DNA from: a virus
Taxonomy: Duplodnaviria; Heunggongvirae; Uroviricota; Caudoviricetes
Strand: one strand, 5' to 3'
Length of the DNA: 11,753 nucleotides
Virus record (IMG/VR): IMGVR_UViG_2531839531_000006
The notes under the pieces are model-generated. The model did not search any database, was not told the origin of the DNA, and was given only the letters and a program-made list of their open reading frames with translations. The stretch's first letter is position 1; the number at the start of each line of letters is the position of its first letter. Shown in pieces: positions 1-11,753 of this stretch. The position numbers and the translations under genes are program-made.

Positions 1-1284
1 TTACTTCTTCGCCTCTGCAACCACTTTACTACCCACGCCGCGGTTATTGTATTCCCACATGCGGTTGTAGTTAGTGTCATTCAGATTGCGCTGTATTTCG
101 TCGTTATCATCTACGCTGCCGGTATTACCCGCAAACGGACGATTAGAGATCACCGCATCGGCCCACGGTTTAGCCGTGTTAAAACCTTCGTTGATGGCGC
201 TATCACGGATCACCACCTGACCGTTGGTATTGGCATCAACATCCAGCGAGCGGCCCAGTTGCGCCACACCATCACCGAAAGCATTGAAACGGCTGTTTAC
301 GGCGAGGAAACCGTAGTAAATGTTGGACAGCGTAGCCGGTGCAAACACATACGCTTCTTGCTGAGTACGTGAGTTCACCACGCGGAATTCGGTGTTATCG
401 AACACCACTGCGCCGCGACCAGAAACGATATCCACATCCCCTTCAATGTAGCTGTTGGTCACCAGCGTACGCGGCTGATGGTTGGTTTCCAGACGGTTCT
501 GCACACCGCTGTTGGTGACAAAGAAGGTGTTCTGACGACCGAGAATGTTAACGTTGTTAATCTGTACCAGGTCACCATCAGTACGCAGTGCCACCGCCGG
601 ATGGTTACCTGCATCTACGCTATCGCCCAGCGTGTTTTCGATGGTCAGATTTTGCAGTTGCAGGCCATTGTTTTGTGACCAGAAGACCGCAGAGCAGAGA
701 ACACCGATACTGTCGCTGCGTTTGCTCTGGCAGCTATCGTACATATACCACGCTGGTTTACCTGGCATATATTTGCCGCGCGGGTTGACGTCGTGACGCC
801 AGTCGGCAGGGCTCATGCCACCATCAAGGGAAAGCCCAATCTTCACATCAATCGGTTTTTCACCTGTACCGTACAGAGTAATTCCACCCGGAGCGGCAGG
901 GACATATACCGTTCCCTGATACTCACCAGGCATCACGGCAATATACTGGCGCTTGTTGGTACGCTTGATAATTGCCGCATCTACCGCCGCCTGAATCGTG
1001 GTATGCGTTACACCTTGAGTGCCCGCCGGGCCGACAACAAAGTCAGGTTGCGCAGGCAGGGTAATCGGGGAAGGATTCCACGCTGCAGCACCTGGTGTCA
1101 GGGATGCAAAATAGTGTTGAGCATCGAAATTCTGCGCTTCTTTTGCCGACAGAATCGGGCGAGAAGAGGTACCAGGCGCGGTTTGATCAGAAGGACGTTG
1201 ATCGGGCGGGGTTGAGCTACAGGCGGTCAGCGTCACGCCAAAAGCCAATGCCAGCGCCAGACGGGAAACTGAAAATGTGTTCAC
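1..1284 (-). CDS. ybhC: Outer-membrane lipoprotein YbhC (pectinesterase-fold putative acyl-CoA thioesterase); host gene flanking lambda attB
   Basis: Complete 427-aa ORF with stop at 1-3. N-terminus MNTFSVSRLALALAFGVTLTAC is a lipoprotein signal peptide with an LTAC lipobox. Sequence matches my recollection of E. coli YbhC, the gene next to lambda attB. Confidence 0.85.
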   Translation of the reverse strand: MNTFSVSRLALALAFGVTLTACSSTPPDQRPSDQTAPGTSSRPILSAKEAQNFDAQHYFASLTPGAAAWNPSPITLPAQPDFVVGPAGTQGVTHTTIQAAVDAAIIKRTNKRQYIAVMPGEYQGTVYVPAAPGGITLYGTGEKPIDVKIGLSLDGGMSPADWRHDVNPRGKYMPGKPAWYMYDSCQSKRSDSIGVLCSAVFWSQNNGLQLQNLTIENTLGDSVDAGNHPAVALRTDGDLVQINNVNILGRQNTFFVTNSGVQNRLETNHQPRTLVTNSYIEGDVDIVSGRGAVVFDNTEFRVVNSRTQQEAYVFAPATLSNIYYGFLAVNSRFNAFGDGVAQLGRSLDVDANTNGQVVIRDSAINEGFNTAKPWADAVISNRPFAGNTGSVDDNDEIQRNLNDTNYNRMWEYNNRGVGSKVVAEAKK

Positions 1285-1418: not shown

Positions 1419-2489
1419 TTATTTGATTTCAATTTTGTCCCACTCCCTGCCTCTGTCATCACGATACTGTGATGCCATGGTGTCCGACTTATGCCCGAGA
1501 AGATGTTGAGCAAACTTATCGCTTATCTGCTTCTCATAGAGTCTTGCAGACAAACTGCGCAACTCGTGAAAGGTAGGCGGATCCCCTTCGAAGGAAAGAC
1601 CTGATGCTTTTCGTGCGCGCATAAAATACCTTGATACTGTGCCGGATGAAAGCGGTTCACGACGAGTAGATGCAATTATGGTTTCTCCGCCAAGAATCTC
1701 TTTGCATTTATCAAGTGTTTCCTTCATTGATATCCCGAGAGCATCAACATGCAATGTTGTTGGGATGGCAATTTTTACGCCTGTTTTGCTTTGCTCGACA
1801 TAAAGATATCCATCTACGATATCAGACCACTTCATTTCGCATAAATCACCAACTCGTTGCCCGGTAACAACAGCCAGTTCCATTGCAAGTCTGAGCCAAC
1901 ATGGTGATGATTCTGCTGCTTGATAAATTTTCAGGTATTCGTCAGCCGTAAGTCTTGATCTCCTTACCTCTGATTTTGCTGCGCGAGTGGCAGCGACAGG
2001 GTTTGTTGTTATATGGCCTTCAGCTATTGCCTCTCGGAATGCATCGCTCAGTGTTGATCTGATTAACTTGGCTGACGCCGCCTTGCCCTCGTCTATGTAT
2101 CCATTGAGCATTGCCGCAATTTCTTTTGTGGTGATGTCTTCAAGTGGAGCATCAGGCAGACCCCTCCTTATTGCTTTAATTTTGCTCATGTAATTTATGA
2201 GTGTCTTCTGCTTGATTCCTCTGCTGGCCAGGATTTTTTCGTAGCGATCAAGCCATGAATGTAACGTAACGGAATTATCACTGTTGATTCTCGCTGTCAG
2301 AGGCTTGTGTTTGTGTCCTGAAAATAACTCAATGTTGGCCTGTATGGCTTCAGTGATTGCGATTCGCCTGTCTCTGCCTAATCCAAACTCTTTACCCGTC
2401 CTTGGGTCCCTGTAGCAGTAATATCCATTGTTTCTTATATAAAGGTTAGGGGGTAAATCTCGGCGCTCATGACTTCGCCTTCTTCCCAT
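1419..2489 (-). CDS. int: Lambda-type integrase (tyrosine recombinase)
   Basis: 356-aa ORF beginning MGRRRSHERRDLPPNLYIRNNGYYCYRDPRTGKEFGLG, matching lambda Int in length and sequence as I recall it. It lies beside attL and overlaps xis by 23 nt as in lambda. Confidence 0.95.
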   Translation of the reverse strand: MGRRRSHERRDLPPNLYIRNNGYYCYRDPRTGKEFGLGRDRRIAITEAIQANIELFSGHKHKPLTARINSDNSVTLHSWLDRYEKILASRGIKQKTLINYMSKIKAIRRGLPDAPLEDITTKEIAAMLNGYIDEGKAASAKLIRSTLSDAFREAIAEGHITTNPVAATRAAKSEVRRSRLTADEYLKIYQAAESSPCWLRLAMELAVVTGQRVGDLCEMKWSDIVDGYLYVEQSKTGVKIAIPTTLHVDALGISMKETLDKCKEILGGETIIASTRREPLSSGTVSRYFMRARKASGLSFEGDPPTFHELRSLSARLYEKQISDKFAQHLLGHKSDTMASQYRDDRGREWDKIEIK

Positions 2490-2685
2490 TTCTGATCCTC
2501 TTCAAAAGGCTACCTGTTACTGGTCGATTTAAGTCAACCTTTACCGCTGATTCGTGGAACAGATACTCTCTTCCATCCTTAACCGGAGGAGGGAATATCC
2601 TGCACTCGCGTACCCATCGACGAACTGTTTCAAGGCTTCTTGGGCGTCGCTGGCGTGCGTTCCACTCCTGAAGTGTCAAGTACAT
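2467..2685 (-). CDS. xis: Excisionase
   Basis: 72-aa ORF MYLTLQEWNARQRRPRSLETVRRWVRECRIFPPPVKDGREYLFHESAVKVDLNRPVTGSLLKRIRNGKKAKS, matching lambda Xis in length and sequence as recalled. It overlaps the int start. Confidence 0.95.
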   Translation of the reverse strand: MYLTLQEWNARQRRPRSLETVRRWVRECRIFPPPVKDGREYLFHESAVKVDLNRPVTGSLLKRIRNGKKAKS

Positions 2686-2710
2686 CGCAAAGTCTCCGCA
2701 ATTACACGCA

Positions 2711-2733
2711 AGAAAAAACCGCCATCAGGCGGC
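2711..2733 (-). terminator. Putative rho-independent terminator (minus-strand sense) just upstream of xis
   Basis: Plus-strand CCGCC-ATCA-GGCGG (2719..2732) gives a 5-bp GC stem with a 4-nt loop; on the minus strand it is followed by TTTTTTCT (plus-strand A-run 2711..2718). Confidence 0.4.
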
Positions 2734-2783
2734 TTGGTGTTCTTTCAGTTCTTCAATTCGAATATTGGTTACGTCTGCATGTG

Positions 2784-2984
2784 CTATCTGCGCCCACAGC
2801 ATCCAGTGGTCATAGCAGTCGCTGATGTTCTCGGCTTCGATAACTCTGTTGAATGGTTCTCCATTCCATTCACCTGTGACTCGGAAGTGCATTTATCATC
2901 TCCATAAAACAAAACCCGCCGTAGCGAGTTCAGATAAAAGAAATCCTCGTCAGTGCGAGGATGCTGTTCATTGCTGCTATACAC
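2784..2984 (-). CDS. Hypothetical small protein (66 codons, GTG start); possibly non-coding
   Basis: ORF in the six-frame track. The start codon is GTG (plus strand CAC at 2982..2984) with only a weak GAGAG upstream. No recognisable motif. It sits in the non-lambda cassette. Confidence 0.2.
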   Translation of the reverse strand: MYSSNEQHPRTDEDFFYLNSLRRVLFYGDDKCTSESQVNGMENHSTELSKPRTSATAMTTGCCGRR

Positions 2985-3134
2985 TTTTTTGCTCTCAACG
3001 TAAGCGGTAGCCCATTCTGTTGGGTTGGTGCAGTTGCTTTTAGGAAATGCTATTTACCCCTTAAATGTCGGCTGAAAGAGCTAAAATCCATGCAAAAAAT
3101 TTACGCAATTTTGTGTATTATTGTGCAGTAAGTA

Positions 3135-3737
3135 ATGAGCTATTTTCTGCGCAAAAAATGGATGGTAAATTTGTCCGGGTCAGGAAAAATTTTATGGGCG
3201 CTAAACATGAAAAAAGATTCGTATCCTTATTTGATTTGCATGACAGTTTCAGGGCTGATCTTTATTTTCCTTTTCTTCTGGTGGCGGGCAGATATCTACA
3301 GGGTCACGTTTCTTAATCAGAGTATATCCCACTATTACATTCTGTTTAGCATGGGAATAGCTTTTCTGTTATCTCTGTTTTGGGTTAAGAAGGGGATAGT
3401 AAAACAAAGAGGCTGGAAGAGTCTGTCAGCATACCTTAAGGTTTATGCAGGGATGTGCATATTTGCTGGATTTTTTCTGATTATACCCCTTACGACACTA
3501 ACTTATTTTTTGCCTGGAGAGACATCGTCTTATGTTGCACCGTATCGGTATACTTCCGGTAGTTCAAAAAGTTGTTCTGGAGCTGAGGTGGATGACCCCG
3601 ATCTACATGAGAATATTCGCATTTGCTATCCGTATGGCAATTATGAGTACGATAATATTATCTATGTTGAAAAGAAAATTAATATATTAGGTGCGGTAGT
3701 GACATATGCACAGACCGCGCGTGATGATACTGAATGA
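3135..3737 (+). CDS. Hypothetical integral membrane protein (3 predicted TM helices plus a ~70-aa C-terminal soluble domain); cargo gene in the ea-region slot
   Basis: 200-codon ORF on the strand opposite the early operon, in A+T-rich DNA where chance ORFs of this length are unlikely. Three hydrophobic segments: LICMTVSGLIFIFLFFWW, YYILFSMGIAFLLSLFWV, VYAGMCIFAGFFLIIPLTTLTYFL. Start is ambiguous: in-frame ATGs at 3135, 3162 and 3207, none with a strong Shine-Dalgarno. A hairpin terminator follows the stop. Confidence 0.65.
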   Translation: MSYFLRKKWMVNLSGSGKILWALNMKKDSYPYLICMTVSGLIFIFLFFWWRADIYRVTFLNQSISHYYILFSMGIAFLLSLFWVKKGIVKQRGWKSLSAYLKVYAGMCIFAGFFLIIPLTTLTYFLPGETSSYVAPYRYTSGSSKSCSGAEVDDPDLHENIRICYPYGNYEYDNIIYVEKKINILGAVVTYAQTARDDTE

Positions 3738-3771
3738 TATAGTATATAGCGGGCAAGTTTTAGTTAATTTA

Positions 3772-3809
3772 TCGAGGTAATATAATTTACCTCGACTCGT
3801 TTGTTCTGG
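3772..3809 (+). terminator. Putative rho-independent terminator for the plus-strand membrane-protein gene
   Basis: Perfect 9-bp inverted repeat TCGAGGTAA (3772..3780) / TTACCTCGA (3787..3795) with loop TATAAT, followed by T-rich CTCGTTTGTTCT, about 35 nt after the stop at 3737. Confidence 0.45.
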
Positions 3810-3947
3810 TATTAATATTTCGCTTTACGACCGATTTTTATCTGATGATATCATGCGGTTTTCATATACTGACTTACTGTCTTTTCTCCGTTAGCGATTT
3901 TCTCCTGCTCAGCGATGATTTTATCTTTGGCTTCTAGTTAATTTCGC

Positions 3948-4169
3948 TCACTTCGAACCTCTCTGTTTACTGATAAGCTCCAGATCCTCCTGGCAACTTG
4001 CACAAGTCCGACAACCCTGAACGACCAGGCGTCTTCGTTCATCTATCGGATCGCCACACTCACAACAATGAGTGGCAGATATAGCCTGGTGGTTCAGGCG
4101 GCGCATTTTTATTGCTGTGTTGCGCTGTAATTCTTCAATTTCTGATGCTGAATCAATGATGTCTGCCAT
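3948..4169 (-). CDS. TraR/DksA-family C4 zinc-finger protein (lambda orf73-like RNA polymerase-binding regulator)
   Basis: 73-aa ORF with C35-x2-C38-x17-C56-x2-C59 spacing, the TraR/DksA zinc-finger pattern. Size and position are typical of phage TraR homologues upstream of the recombination module. Confidence 0.8.
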   Translation of the reverse strand: MADIIDSASEIEELQRNTAIKMRRLNHQAISATHCCECGDPIDERRRLVVQGCRTCASCQEDLELISKQRGSK

Positions 4170-8036: not shown

Positions 8037-8591
8037 TTGATGAGTATAGAAATGGATCCACTCGTTATTCTCGGACGAGTGTTCAGTAATGAACCTCTGG
8101 AGAGAACCATGTATATGATCGTTATCTGGGTTGGACTTCTGCTTTTAAGCCCAGATAACTGGCCTGAATATGTTAATGAGAGAATCGGTATTCCTCATGT
8201 GTGGCATGTTTTCGTCTTTGCTCTTGCATTTTCGCTAGCAATTAATGTGCATCGATTATCAGCTATTGCCAGCGCCAGATATAAGCGATTTAAGCTAAGA
8301 AAACGCATTAAGATGCAAAACGATAAAGTGCGATCGGTAATTCAAAACCTTACAGAAGAGCAATCTATGGTTTTGTGCGCAGCCCTTAATGAAGGCAGGA
8401 AGTATGTGGTTACATCAAAACAATTCCCATACATTAGTGAGTTGATTGAGCTTGGTGTGTTGAACAAAACTTTTTCCCGATGGAACGGGAAGCATATATT
8501 ATTCCCTATTGAGGATATTTACTGGACTGAATTAGTTGCCAGCTATGATCCATATAATATTGAGATAAAGCCAAGGCCAATATCTAAGTAA
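8037..8591 (+). CDS. sieB: SieB superinfection exclusion protein (membrane protein; an internal in-frame start would give Esc)
   Basis: 184-aa ORF of exactly lambda sieB length and position, convergent with and abutting the N stop. Hydrophobic segments MYMIVIWVGLLLLSP and VFVFALAFSLAI. Confidence 0.9.
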   Translation: MMSIEMDPLVILGRVFSNEPLERTMYMIVIWVGLLLLSPDNWPEYVNERIGIPHVWHVFVFALAFSLAINVHRLSAIASARYKRFKLRKRIKMQNDKVRSVIQNLTEEQSMVLCAALNEGRKYVVTSKQFPYISELIELGVLNKTFSRWNGKHILFPIEDIYWTELVASYDPYNIEIKPRPISK

Positions 8592-9345: not shown

Positions 9346-10209
9346 TTATGCAGCCTGACTCAATCGATATTGTACCGGGCTAAGACCGCCAAGTTTTTCC
9401 TTTATCCTCAATTGATTATAATAGTTTATGTAATCAATGATGTCTCGCTTTAAGTCCTCCACATTTTTATATTCATTGAGGTAATAACATTCTGATTTCA
9501 ATGTTCCAAAAAAGCTCTCTATAACTGCATTATCAAGACAATTTCCCCGGCGAGACATACTCTGGACTATACCGCTATCCTTTAACCATCGTTGCCACCG
9601 GGACATCTGATATTGCCAACCTTGATCGCTGTGCAGTATGGGGTGTTCATCTTTCGACAGCTGTTTCAGCGCATCCGTAAGCATAGTCTGCACCATTGAA
9701 GGTTGAGGGCGAGTGGCGAGGTTATAGGAAATTATTTCTCCATTATAAAGATCCATGACGGGCGACAAATACAGCTTCTTGCCATTCACTTTAAATTCAG
9801 TGACATCTGTAACCCACTTCTCGTTGGGGCGTTTTGCATCAAAATTGCGTTTCAGGAGATTATCGCAAATTCGTCCTTGTTCTCCTTTATATGAACGGTA
9901 TTTTTTAACGCGGATCAGGCTGCTAATACCCAGTTCCTTCATCAGTTTTCTGACGGTTTTACCATTAAGTAAAACCCCCTCGTTACGACATGCCAGCCTG
10001 ATGCGTCTGTAACCATAGCGGCCTTTGTGCTGGTGATAAATTTTCAGCACAAGCGCTCTGGCAGACTGATACCGGTCAGGAGCAGCAAGCCGTCTGACAT
10101 GATAGTAAAATGTACTCCGGGGCAGCCCGGAAACAATTAACAATCGGGACAATGGCCATTCCTGCCTTAGTTCATTCACAATGCTCACTTTTTCCTGAAC
10201 GTTGAGCAT
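9346..10209 (-). CDS. IS3-family transposase OrfB (DDE catalytic domain; expressed as OrfAB fusion by -1 frameshift)
   Basis: 287-aa ORF containing HSDQGWQY, RKGNCLDNAV and YYN motifs typical of IS3/IS150 OrfB. Overlaps orfA by 25 nt in the -1 frame. Confidence 0.85.
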   Translation of the reverse strand: MLNVQEKVSIVNELRQEWPLSRLLIVSGLPRSTFYYHVRRLAAPDRYQSARALVLKIYHQHKGRYGYRRIRLACRNEGVLLNGKTVRKLMKELGISSLIRVKKYRSYKGEQGRICDNLLKRNFDAKRPNEKWVTDVTEFKVNGKKLYLSPVMDLYNGEIISYNLATRPQPSMVQTMLTDALKQLSKDEHPILHSDQGWQYQMSRWQRWLKDSGIVQSMSRRGNCLDNAVIESFFGTLKSECYYLNEYKNVEDLKRDIIDYINYYNQLRIKEKLGGLSPVQYRLSQAA

Positions 10210-10691
10210 GTTTTCTGCTGAACCAAGGCTTTCAGCTTTTTTAAGTAGGCATTCTCGACCCTGAGTTGTTCAAGTTCTTCTCTCTCATCTTTGGTTAATG
10301 TTGGTAGTGGTGGTGCTGAAATGGCGCTTTTATCCGGCACAGGAATACTCTTTTTATTTTTTCGAATGAAAGCATCTTCGCCATATTTTCTATATTTTTC
10401 AAGCCAGTTGCATACAGTACCAAAGGCTGGTATTCCGTGTTTTACCGCTACTTCACGAACAGAAAAACAGTCATCCACGACTTCTTTTACTACTGTGAGT
10501 TTTAACTCAGCAGAATAGCGTCCTTTTTTACCCGTAAGTATGCTTATCCCATGTTCCCGATAGGCATAAGCCCATTTTCTTACTGTGCAGGGACTGATAC
10601 CGTACATCCTTGCTACAGATTTCAGACTCAACTCTCCCTCCAGGTACTTTTCTGATACTACCTTTTTGAACTCCAATGAAAACTTTTCCAT
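10185..10691 (-). CDS. IS3-family transposase OrfA (HTH plus leucine zipper)
   Basis: 168-aa ORF with an N-terminal helix-turn-helix (SVARMYGISPCTVRKWAYAY) and a C-terminal coiled coil (EELEQLRVENAYLKKLKALV). Confidence 0.85.
   Translation of the reverse strand: MEKFSLEFKKVVSEKYLEGELSLKSVARMYGISPCTVRKWAYAYREHGISILTGKKGRYSAELKLTVVKEVVDDCFSVREVAVKHGIPAFGTVCNWLEKYRKYGEDAFIRKNKKSIPVPDKSAISAPPLPTLTKDEREELEQLRVENAYLKKLKALVQQKTCSTFRKK
10236..10242 (-). other. Programmed -1 ribosomal frameshift heptamer A AAA AAG (orfA to orfB)
   Basis: Plus-strand CTTTTTT at 10236..10242 is AAAAAAG on the coding strand, in the orfA/orfB overlap, as in other IS3-family elements. Confidence 0.7.
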
Positions 10692-10758
10692 GCATCCTCA
10701 GTTTTTGGTCTGGTGTCTAACCTTTGGGGCGCAGTTCATTTTTAATGGACACTATCGT

Positions 10759-11406
10759 ATGAAACACCGGACCTGGATCACTGAAGCTTTACGTCTTCAC
10801 TTTGAAGAACATTTACCCCGGGTTGTGGCCGGGCGTCGCCTGGGTGTACCAAAATCAACAGTTTGTAGTATGTTCGTGCGCTTTCGGAGAGCTGGCCTTT
10901 CGTGGCCTTTGCCCGCAGGCATGTCGGAGCAGGAACTTGATGCCTGCCTTTACGGACAATTTTCCACGGTACCAGTCGTACGTCCTGAAAGCACCGTTAT
11001 ATCCGAAGCCCCCGTGGTAAAAAAACGTCCCCGGCGGCCCAACTTCCCTTATGAGTTTAAAATCGCCTTAGTGGAGCAGTCACTGCAGCCCGGAGCCTGT
11101 GTGGCGCAGATCGCCCGGGAAAACGGAATCAACGATAACCTGCTCTTCAACTGGCGCCATCAATACCGGAAAGGTGGCCTGCTGCCTTCCGGAAAAAATA
11201 TGCCGGCACTGCTTCCCGTGACGTTAACGCCGGAGCCGGATAATAAAATCCCGGCCCCCGCACAGGAACCAGAGCAGATAAATACACCGTCCGACAGTCT
11301 GTGTTGTGAGCTGGTTCTGCCGGCCGGAACTCTCAGGCTTAAAGGTAAACTGACGCCGGCGTTATTACAGACACTTATCCGCGAAATAAAAGGGAGCAGC
11401 CACTGA
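10759..11406 (+). CDS. IS66-family Orf1 (TnpA-like accessory protein); start codon uncertain
   Basis: C-terminal part (RPRRPNFPYEFKIALVEQSLQPGACVAQIARENGINDNLLFNWRHQYRKGG ... CELVLPAGTLRLKGKLTPALLQTLIREIKG) is typical of IS66 Orf1. First in-frame ATG outside the IS3 element is at 10759 (MKHRTW...) and lacks a good Shine-Dalgarno. The 273-codon track ORF begins inside the IS3 inverted repeat and is an artefact. Confidence 0.5.
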   Translation: MKHRTWITEALRLHFEEHLPRVVAGRRLGVPKSTVCSMFVRFRRAGLSWPLPAGMSEQELDACLYGQFSTVPVVRPESTVISEAPVVKKRPRRPNFPYEFKIALVEQSLQPGACVAQIARENGINDNLLFNWRHQYRKGGLLPSGKNMPALLPVTLTPEPDNKIPAPAQEPEQINTPSDSLCCELVLPAGTLRLKGKLTPALLQTLIREIKGSSH

Positions 11407-11753
11407 TGATATCTCTCCCTGCAGGTTCGCGTATCTGGCTGGTTGCAGGTATCACCGATATGCGAAATGGCTTTAACGGCCTGGCATCAAAAGTTCAGAA
11501 CGTCCTGAAGGATGACCCGTTCTCCGGACACCTGTTCATCTTCCGCGGACGCCGGGGTGACCAGATAAAAGTGTTGTGGGCTGACAGTGACGGACTGTGC
11601 CTCTTCACCAAACGCCTGGAGCGGGGCCGCTTCGTCTGGCCAGTCACCCGTGACGGCAAGGTGCACCTTACTCCGGCTCAGTTATCCATGCTTCTTGAAG
11701 GTATCAACTGGAAGCACCCGAAACGAACGGAACGCGCTGGAATCCGCATATAA
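11406..11753 (+). CDS. IS66-family TnpB (Orf2)
   Basis: 115-aa ORF MISLPAGSRIWLVAGITDMRNGFNGLASKVQNVLKDDPFSGHLFIFRGRRGDQIKVLWAD, matching IS66-family TnpB as I recall it. Its ATG overlaps the orf1 TGA (TGATG). Stop is at the window end. Confidence 0.85.
   Translation: MISLPAGSRIWLVAGITDMRNGFNGLASKVQNVLKDDPFSGHLFIFRGRRGDQIKVLWADSDGLCLFTKRLERGRFVWPVTRDGKVHLTPAQLSMLLEGINWKHPKRTERAGIRI

Follow-up and report, generated by a model that had tools for sequence, protein, structure and literature searches.

Evidence for a mobile moron cassette encoding a predicted inner-membrane protein in a 434-like lambdoid prophage, with a tentative role in superinfection exclusion

The DNA analyzed here is a viral stretch of 11,753 nucleotides (nt) (IMG/VR record IMGVR_UViG_2531839531_000006), referred to below as the window, and the subject is a plus-strand open reading frame (ORF) at 3135-3737 in the exo-xis region of its lambdoid prophage. 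Comparative sequence analysis gave good support to the view that this gene, called the target gene here, is a moron carried on a mobile, self-contained cassette of ~0.8 kb (~3012-3827). The comparative data favored a gene at 3207-3737 encoding 176 amino acids (aa). Its product is predicted to be a membrane protein with three transmembrane (TM) helices and a periplasmic domain, for which we tentatively propose a role in superinfection exclusion.

The ORF comprises 200 codons and stands alone in a gap of ~1 kb (2893-3947) in the minus-strand exo-xis region. Between ORF55 and the TraR-like gene it is the sole conserved ORF of at least 60 aa, and no competing minus-strand ORF of more than 34 aa was found in the gap. 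The first-pass annotation of this DNA had placed the ORF between xis and the TraR-like gene, in the slot that holds ea8.5 and ea22 in lambda. This location was borne out, and an ea22 relic is still present at 3854-3937 on the minus strand, so that the term "ea22 slot" is literally correct. The slot had also been described as holding a single ORF; the target gene is indeed the only substantial one, but the short ea22-like remnant is there as well. In its best stretch, the remnant was identical at 11 of 15 positions to a truncated "ead/Ea22-like family protein" pseudogene that lies downstream of the P2-type copy in Escherichia coli H3 (LDWLETKDNRIAELEKIATD), and by this comparison it is a relic of the usual occupant of the slot. 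The features of the gap are as follows.

2912-2962, minus strand: a pair of leftward hairpin terminators bordering the gap on its left side (terminator scan)
3012-3206, plus strand: upstream noncoding part of the mobile cassette, common to the E. coli P2-type copy
3101-3128, plus strand: tandem 10-bp repeats TTACGCAATT / TTGTGTATTA / TTGTGCAGTA, a candidate regulator-binding element
3135-3206, plus strand: codons 1-24 of the 200-codon ORF, a nonconserved in-frame extension
3163-3171, plus strand: extended -10-like element TGGTAAATT, a candidate cassette promoter
3207-3737, plus strand: coding sequence of the 176-aa protein from the conserved start M25, stop included
3772-3795, plus strand: hairpin with a 9-bp stem, the likely cassette terminator (terminator scan, folding)
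3854-3937, minus strand: ead/Ea22-like remnant LEAKDKIIAEQEKIANGEKTVSQYMKTA, 28 codons, no start codon (translation and comparison)

Morons in the sense of Juhala and Hendrix are recognized by extra DNA, deviant base composition, an own promoter and terminator, horizontal spread, and expression from the prophage (PMC3594210). Here, extra DNA was found between conserved genes, in the xis-to-TraR gap with its ea22 relic, and in few phage records. The A+T-rich appearance noted in the first-pass annotation was confirmed: the G+C content was 37.6% for the module (3012-3827) and 39.0% for the coding sequence, compared with 45.4% and 46.5% for the prophage part and the whole window, respectively. The G+C content at third codon positions (GC3) was 0.38 in the target gene versus ~0.60 in its neighbors (0.59-0.61 in exo and bet). 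Horizontal spread was evident from copies in lambdoid and in several P2-like lineages. For an own transcription unit, an extended -10-like element and a stable hairpin were found, but the former had no canonical sigma-70 match and the latter a weak T-tail. The moron organization proposed earlier from orientation, composition, and hairpin was thus strengthened by a cassette shared with P2-like prophages.

The genomic contexts of the family were determined for 113 loci by marker-protein mapping, together with gene tables and flank annotation. In the lambdoid class, all copies with 97-100% identity had xis/ORF55 on one side and the TraR-like gene on the other, each at a constant distance; they are one recent, nearly invariant module. 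In the P2 class, copies with 47-79% identity were located between the portal gene gpQ and the replication gene gpA in E. coli, Salmonella, and Klebsiella. These copies were always on the Q/P strand, opposing gpA, and the accompanying portals were 40-100% identical across lineages. The gpQ-gpA position holds for the homologs P0039, P0044, P0048, and P0054 and for the IMG/VR loci L098-L113. The third class is chromosomal and is considered below with the alternatives. No constant neighbor or partner gene was found in any context examined, and the protein would therefore have to act by itself or through core host factors.

Lambdoid and P2-type copies share more than the coding sequence. The window and the E. 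coli P2-type locus were ~76% identical in nucleotide sequence over ~3012-3827, a stretch that begins ~195 nt before the start codon and extends ~90 nt beyond the stop. In blastn against locus L116, window positions 3070-3827 matched at 76.5% over 761 nt and positions 3012-3074 at 73%. Because the upstream DNA with its promoter-like element, the coding sequence, the hairpin position, and the ea22 remnant are all common to the two, sequence comparison indicates that the cassette is transferred whole between lambdoid and P2-like phages. The ea22 gene belongs to the lambdoid exo-xis region, and lambda has ea8.5 and ea22 in its xis-to-TraR gap (PMC7093339, PMC3824215). For this reason, a lambdoid phage is the probable source of both the E. 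coli P2-type copy and its flank.

The upstream region was then considered for expression signals. A generic sigma-70 scan found no canonical -35/-10 pair upstream of the target gene. An element of the form TGrTAAnTT was present 44-48 nt upstream of the ATG in seven distinct alleles (the window, L098, L005, L105, L015, L019, and L025), which have 56-79% protein identity and include two chromosomal alleles. From this extended -10-like element, a transcription start at ~3178-3181 may be inferred. The tandem decamers (consensus ATTGTGCAGT) occur in 2-3 copies in the window. Among P2-type alleles, 2-3 copies were found in L098 and L005, and 3.3 copies with a 95% match in L105 (7894-7926). Downstream of the gene, the hairpin at 3772-3795 gave the region 3738-3815 a minimum free energy of -18.7 kcal/mol (z = -2.9 versus shuffled controls). 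Its T-tail, CTCGTTTGTT, is weak; the hairpin pointed out earlier is confirmed as stable and is the likely terminator. A weaker 6-bp hairpin lies at the homologous place in L098, and L005 and L021 have no clear equivalent.

At the left edge of the gap, the hairpin at 2943-2962 corresponds to the tL4 of an old 434 record, M60848 (record positions 2292-2322, corresponding to window 2936-2966). The two hairpins at 2912-2962 close the nonantiterminated early-left transcription, downstream of the cassette. Since pL is repressed in the lysogen, transcription of the cassette would proceed without opposing traffic, and during lytic growth it would meet convergent, N-antiterminated transcription.

The target gene is not a chance ORF, since the ratio of nonsynonymous to synonymous substitution rates (dN/dS; Nei-Gojobori, with dS at saturation) was 0.09-0.17 between the window allele and alleles 59-79% identical to it. 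These comparisons indicate a real gene under strong purifying selection. By part, the ratio was ~0.09-0.14 in the C-terminal domain and 0.11-0.27 in the TM region, and the TM helices were the least conserved part of the protein (43-74% identity). For the chromosomal Enterobacter orthologs, it was 0.2-0.35. Intact copies of the lambdoid allele, with 97-100% identity, occur in ~900 of 5,426 complete E. coli genomes and in >60 IMG/VR contigs. Among 50,697 phage records, the target gene was found only in 434, 434B, mEp332, and 2B8. It corresponds to CPT_434_36 of phage 434 and to XSB40999 of mEp332 (98.9-99.4% identical), where the existing annotation reads only "putative membrane protein" (434) or "hypothetical."

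The first-pass annotation had given the ORF 200 codons and named a 176-aa form from M25 as an alternative; the homologs support the shorter form. In protein alignment A1, 16 of the 16 diverged homologs start at the equivalent of M25 (nt 3207; MKKxSYP...). At 19 of 22 other loci, an in-frame start upstream of the M25-equivalent ATG was missing, with stops 1-18 codons upstream; the E. coli P2-type allele L098, for example, has TGA four codons before it. Among lambdoid alleles the open in-frame extension was variable, at 7, 25, or 47 codons. Thus, M25 is favored as the true start, and codons 1-24 (3135-3206) are probably not translated. A strong Shine-Dalgarno sequence precedes the ATG at several of the other loci. 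The alternative start codons upstream of M25 are at 3135, 3162, and 3171, and the transcription start proposed at ~3178 is downstream of all three, consistent with M25. Annotated starts are at 3135 (RefSeq and mEp332) or at a TTG at 3171 (434 record), and conservation supports neither. An old 434 fragment record gives a partial "ORF-22+" at window 3194, which by its coordinates is read in another frame.

The earlier description of three hydrophobic helices and a C-terminal domain with two cysteines agreed with the hydropathy profile, in which the helices are at residues ~31-50, ~64-84, and ~103-125 (200-aa numbering, as in all residue numbers here). The loop at 85-103 holds six basic and zero acidic residues (+6/0), and the C-terminal domain of ~74 residues is net acidic (+6/-12). 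On this basis, the topology check suggested in the first-pass annotation predicted three TM helices with the N terminus inside and the C terminus outside. The predicted parts, all on the plus strand, are given below; the membrane segments and loops derive from hydropathy, charge, and alignments A1 and A2.

~3225-3284, plus strand: TM helix 1
~3285-3323, plus strand: periplasmic loop 1
~3324-3386, plus strand: TM helix 2
~3387-3440, plus strand: basic cytoplasmic loop
~3441-3509, plus strand: TM helix 3
3513-3734, plus strand: periplasmic beta-domain with C147 and C164

An AlphaFold2 model from a 22-sequence alignment had a predicted local distance difference test score (pLDDT) of 86.1 and a predicted template modeling score (pTM) of 0.71 for the whole protein, and a pLDDT of 91.2 for the C-terminal domain alone. 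Besides three long helices, the model has a short strand at the conserved IYRxTFL of the first periplasmic loop and five strands in the C-terminal part. The architecture of three TM helices and a periplasmic OB-like barrel, with its topology, is therefore predicted with good confidence. The best structural neighbors of the C-terminal domain were OB-like domains of the DUF1093/YxeA type (PDB 3npp and 2k5q), which are likewise small five-stranded barrels, extracytoplasmic and membrane anchored. C147 and C164 were invariant among 17-22 diverged homologs and, given their predicted periplasmic location, probably form a disulfide. No conserved polar or charged intramembrane residues were found in the three helices of alignment A1. 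A lipoprotein of the Cor/Llp type was also considered and rejected: the N-terminal YLIC has Ile at -1 and does not match the lipobox L-[ASTVI]-[GAS]-C, and its Cys is not conserved, the homologs reading LISV, LFSV, and others.

The protein had been called an orphan, but a small family exists. A word-indexed search returned 74 family proteins, and when 1.84 billion cluster representatives were scanned in full with the profile, only 61 matched at E <=0.001, nearly all of 166-189 aa with an identical end-to-end architecture. The family is limited to the Enterobacterales (Escherichia, Shigella, Salmonella, Klebsiella, Enterobacter, Citrobacter, Cedecea, Pseudescherichia, Serratia, and Pantoea). 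The statement that the protein could not be placed in a characterized family held up, as no significant match was obtained in Pfam, NCBIfam, PADLOC, or PDB sequences with the single protein or the profile. None of the 22 aligned members matched a Pfam family, YebO included. At E <=10 the target protein matched solely a spurious DUF6057 in Pfam.

The only library match was PHROG 1416 (phrog_1416, function not annotated), which has 90 positions and covers residues 113-200 (window 3471-3734), that is, merely the last TM helix and the C-terminal domain. N-terminally truncated family calls are common, in 112-aa and 128-aa forms, and PHROG 1416 was apparently built from truncated or frameshifted gene calls. 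Because it covers only the C-terminal part, phage annotation pipelines miss the full three-TM architecture. One further candidate relative, P0185, a 3,074-aa repeat protein with eight copies of the cysteine motif (E 3e-6), had no informative Pfam domains and was deemed spurious. A 3.5-kb contig binned as "Candidatus Nanosynbacter sp." (L024, JARKOR010000073.1) was 100% identical to the target/TraR/exo region and is almost certainly a binning contaminant.

A role in superinfection exclusion is supported by the presence of family copies in a validated defense hotspot. The gpQ-gpA interval of P2 has been validated experimentally as such a hotspot, with old and tin in P2 itself (PMC9122126). According to a 2026 survey, the interval contains nothing but genes of unknown function in 19% of P2 elements; machine learning predicted an antiviral role for a sizeable minority of these genes, and unannotated genes in such hotspots often turn out to be defensive (PMC13586616). 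The homologs of the target protein occupy the same interval as old and tin, and their orientation toward gpA is the same. Both Old (a nuclease/ATPase) and Tin (a poison of single-stranded DNA-binding protein) are cytoplasmic, whereas the target family consists of predicted membrane proteins without a PADLOC model.

On these grounds, the target protein may mediate envelope-level superinfection exclusion by blocking DNA entry when expressed from the prophage, a reading that appears possible though somewhat short of likely. In the lysogen, transcription would most likely start at a promoter of the cassette itself and run convergently to the pL operon, which is repressed there. Its product would be an inner-membrane protein acting alone at the cell envelope, with the N terminus and the basic loop in the cytoplasm and the conserved first loop and the 74-residue OB-like beta-barrel in the periplasm. 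Exclusion would take place after adsorption, the genome entry of the incoming phage being stopped as it is by HK97 gp15 and P22 SieA. The periplasmic domain might bind a component that phages insert into, or employ at, the inner membrane (tape-measure or ejection proteins) or a host permease of the ManYZ or PtsG type. An inner-membrane blocker would have an obvious site of action, since the genomes of 434 and lambda enter through the inner-membrane ManYZ (PMC6832061; PMC13190303). Both DicB and the SNIPE nuclease act at this step (PMC6832061; PMC13190303), and inner-membrane entry is thus a proven target of prophage-borne or defense proteins.

A bolder version can be formulated, in which the protein is a single-protein anti-phage barrier of lambdoid and P2-like prophages that was recruited from a chromosomal gene of the Enterobacterales. 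Its disulfide-bonded OB-like domain would recognize a conserved part of the machinery that delivers the phage genome, on the side of the phage (tape-measure or ejection proteins) or of the host (the periplasmic face of a permease such as ManYZ or PtsG), and plug inner-membrane entry. We regard this version as rather unlikely to hold in all its parts. If true, the barrier would be a periplasm-side counterpart of SieA, gp15, and DicB, and the adjacency of family copies to phosphotransferase system (PTS) genes in Serratia and Klebsiella would be explained.

The closest known format is that of P22 SieA, an inner-membrane protein of 162-164 aa with three TM helices that is sufficient alone and blocks DNA injection via ejection proteins (PMC10883804). 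Like the target gene, sieA is prophage encoded, is opposed to neighboring phage genes, and encodes three predicted TM helices in ~160-176 aa; it has its own promoter (P22 annotation), for which the target gene has a candidate, and the lack of a constant partner gene would fit the same format. The two families differ in distribution, SieA being found in P22-like podoviruses and the target family in lambdoid and P2-like phages and in chromosomes. A second comparison is offered by HK97 gp15, an archetypal moron with atypical G+C content and its own promoter and terminator that encodes a small, prophage-expressed inner-membrane protein. It blocks genome entry without touching the outer-membrane receptor and has chromosomal homologs (YebO) in the Enterobacteriaceae (PMC3594210). 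The target family likewise has chromosomal Enterobacteriaceae homologs outside prophages. However, gp15 is YebO-like and encoded in the tail operon, in contrast to the exo-xis location, three predicted TM helices, and predicted folded periplasmic domain of the target, and no YebO match was obtained with the target or the 22 members. The SieB profile PF14163 did not match the target either; the true sieB is a separate gene at 8037-8591.

Several observations weigh against a role in exclusion. Homology to SieA was sought and rejected (hhalign of alignment A2 versus P22 SieA, probability 0.2%, E 0.34): SieA belongs to phrog_7745 and the target family to phrog_1416, and the SieA motif FxRYPxEAxxFNK was not found in alignment A1. 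In addition, the conserved motif of SieA is predicted to be cytoplasmic (PMC10883804), whereas the conserved part of the target is the predicted periplasmic OB-like domain. None of the 5,027 models of PADLOC-DB 2.0 matched the target protein at E <=1. Hotspot occupancy is circumstantial, as not every hotspot gene is defensive, and the window copy itself is located in a lambdoid prophage, outside the gpQ-gpA hotspot. The Shine-Dalgarno sequence preceding M25 is weak in the lambdoid allele. A literature search on mEp332, OL657226, WP_001348592, and 434 superinfection exclusion returned no functional, transcript, protein, or phenotype data. The Hex protein of 434 is the product of a different gene, located in the immunity region.

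A further point on the same side comes from the E. coli P2-type allele, in which a run of six G residues (comparison allele L098:8001-8528) is extended to seven in many copies, among them L107 (8001-8529) and strain H3, so that the gene is frameshifted. The copy in L116 (NZ_CP010167, 5057-5632) is annotated in RefSeq as a "frameshifted" pseudogene. The resulting 112-aa ORF (P0103) was found on at least 1,000 contigs, compared with tens for the intact 176-aa form. Selection on this allele is therefore not universal, and the G6/G7 difference could reflect simple decay or slipped-strand phase variation.

The chromosomal copies bear on the main alternative, in which the gene is a host-fitness moron or encodes a cellular envelope protein without an anti-phage role, such as immunity to a colicin or another toxin active in the periplasm, stress tolerance, or regulation of PTS-type transporters. 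On this reading, the periplasmic domain would modulate or shield a process in the envelope, and phages would carry the gene for some other advantage that it gives the lysogen. A syntenic LysR-X-GGDEF locus, apparently inherited vertically, carries the gene in at least seven Enterobacter species, and single chromosomal copies without visible phage context occur in six other genera. These copies count against exclusion, since they suggest that some family members, at least, serve an ordinary function in the cell envelope. The positions recorded, including one on megaplasmids, are the following.

Citrobacter: chromosomal copy near rstB-tus
Cedecea and Pseudescherichia: chromosomal copies near mppA-yccA
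UBA3516: chromosomal copy beside an extracytoplasmic function (ECF) sigma/anti-sigma pair
Serratia (L114): chromosomal copy 234 nt downstream of ptsG, same strand
Klebsiella sp. R390: chromosomal copy divergent from a bgl-type PTS EIIBCA gene
Pantoea: family copies near fetAB on megaplasmids

The Serratia locus is in a 67-kb linear record described as S. marcescens "plasmid" pE28_003 (NZ_CP042515.1); with the housekeeping genes fabF-pabC-mltG-tmk-holB-ptsG on it, this record appears to be a piece of chromosome.

A PTS EIIC gene is thus the neighbor in 2 of ~8 chromosomal contexts (ptsG in Serratia and the bgl-type EIIBCA gene in Klebsiella), which would suit a transporter-related role but may be due to chance. 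A purely cellular function is also in line with the lack of a PADLOC match and with the fact that many characterized morons, such as Lom, Bor, and SopE, are not defense genes (PMC3594210). However, the chromosomal positions differ among genera, as expected for an islet and not for a housekeeping gene, and the phage-borne copies are located specifically in the P2 defense hotspot. Moreover, no toxin, rhs, cdi, or colicin gene was adjacent in the contexts examined. Overall, a host-fitness or cellular role without anti-phage activity is judged somewhat unlikely, but it is a serious competitor of exclusion in view of the chromosomal homologs.

An abortive-infection effector, which would sense infection in the periplasm or membrane, depolarize or permeabilize the inner membrane via its TM bundle, and kill the cell ahead of phage release by the logic of RexB or of the TM effectors of other defense systems, is improbable. 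TM proteins encoded in P2/P4 hotspots are usually interpreted as suicide effectors (PMC9122126). The same prophage also encodes SieB, a membrane protein of the Abi type, with the same orientation and the same low GC3, and the target protein would act without a partner. However, known TM effectors need a separate cytoplasmic sensor, and none is linked to the target. The pattern of conservation also argues against this explanation: the TM helices are the least constrained part (dN/dS up to 0.27) and the periplasmic domain the most, which is a better fit to a binding protein than to a pore. Also against an effector, each monomer has three helices in which no polar or charged residue within the membrane is conserved.

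The 434 GenBank record annotates a CII box (TTGYN6TTGY) at window 3111-3124, coinciding with two of the decamers. The gene might accordingly serve a CII-timed establishment function, either through a rightward transcript antisense to the pL exo-xis RNAs or through a membrane protein aiding the lysis-lysogeny decision, or both. In P22, the corresponding region contains PaI, an antisense promoter activated by C1, and exo-xis genes, including ea22, are reported to influence lysogenization (PMC7093339, PMC3824215). Yet the decamers are found equally in the Salmonella and E. coli P2-type copies, whose phages lack CII, and the TTGYN6TTGY pattern, found once in the window with 0.3 expected by chance, is not significant alone. 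There is no conserved -10 at a CII-type distance, the conserved extended -10 being 40 nt further downstream. The strong constraint acts on the protein, which shows that the protein and not an antisense RNA alone is selected. The CII-dependent promoter is therefore doubtful, and a CII-timed function is highly improbable.

That the gene is a decaying passenger without current function in the window prophage can be set aside as most improbable: insertion sequence (IS) elements cut off the prophage just past N, frameshifts are frequent in the E. coli P2-type allele, and an ea22 relic shares the slot, but the lambdoid allele is intact in the genomes and contigs counted above and in the viable phages 434, mEp332, and 2B8, with dN/dS of ~0.1.

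The target gene was already annotated as a membrane protein in 434 and its organization is conventional. If the proposed block of entry is true, a new sequence-unrelated family would join the few inner-membrane exclusion proteins of E. coli phages (SieA, gp15, and Imm), and a function would be assigned to an unannotated occupant of the P2 defense hotspot, with an example of a cassette shuttling between lambdoid and P2-like phages. About one-sixth of complete E. coli genomes carry the region, so that exclusion, if it occurs, may alter the plating of lambdoid or therapeutic phages on natural isolates. The periplasmic binding domain would also be a possible probe of how siphovirus DNA crosses the inner membrane, a step that is poorly understood. 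If the role is instead that of a cellular envelope protein, the gene would be one more ordinary lysogenic-conversion gene. The case for follow-up is that the gene is common, is present in the classic phage 434 and in the P2 defense hotspot, and can be tested by a few simple experiments.

The setting of the cassette is as follows. Window positions 1-1284 (minus strand) are chromosomal ybhC, followed by the lambdoid prophage at the lambda attachment site. Further minus-strand prophage genes are DUF1382 and DUF1317 genes (lambda orf63 and orf60a types), exo, bet, gam, a DUF2528 gene, and N (N36 motif). From int to bet, the region is nearly identical to phages 434, mEp332, and 2B8. The genes and elements flanking the gap are listed below.

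1419-2489, minus strand: int
2467-2685, minus strand: xis
2725-2892, minus strand: ORF55
3948-4169, minus strand: TraR/DksA-type zinc-finger gene (PF01258)
8037-8591, plus strand: SieB gene (PF14163, E 1e-29)
9346-10691, minus strand: IS3-family element orfA/orfB, beside IS66-family genes
10585-11753, plus strand: IS66-family tnpA/tnpB

The SieB gene, which the first-pass annotation had pointed out, has a GC3 of 0.38 and a plus-strand orientation against the early-left operon, as does the target gene; the prophage thus holds two moron-like membrane-protein genes. The prophage ends after ~9251, directly past the N/pL region, at IS3- and IS66-family elements. An IS3-family element within IS66 is an arrangement frequent on E. 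coli plasmids. The exact N-IS junction of the window was found in 0 of 5,426 complete genomes.

Upstream of the target gene, a 56-codon ORF (ORF56; 2961-3131, plus strand) was considered as a partner gene and rejected. The 434 annotation calls it a "putative membrane protein" and that of mEp332 a "hypothetical protein," and it had no match in Pfam, NCBIfam, or PADLOC. In the homologous region of the P2-type locus L098, its frame is broken by an insertion of ~80 nt with the palindrome AAAAAACGCGTTTTTT, and ORF56 is probably not a gene.

Other observations concern related loci. No PADLOC model matched the co-residents of the P2 hotspot at the loci examined. In a Klebsiella P2-like hotspot that also holds a homolog of the target gene (L021:2281-5623, minus strand), a 789-aa NB-ARC/AAA_16 protein (STAND/NLR-like) is encoded with a 278-aa partner, and the pair is possibly an uncatalogued Avs-like system. 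Phage 434 carries a 114-codon ORF (ORF114, CPT_434_33; L001 2453-2797) between xis and ORF55 that is absent from the window (2686-2724) and from mEp332, a difference of ~440 bp. In the b-region of 434 (L001 1-590, outside the window), a protein is annotated as an NleC-like zinc metalloprotease effector of type III secretion, and its gene is a virulence-type moron in this classic laboratory phage.

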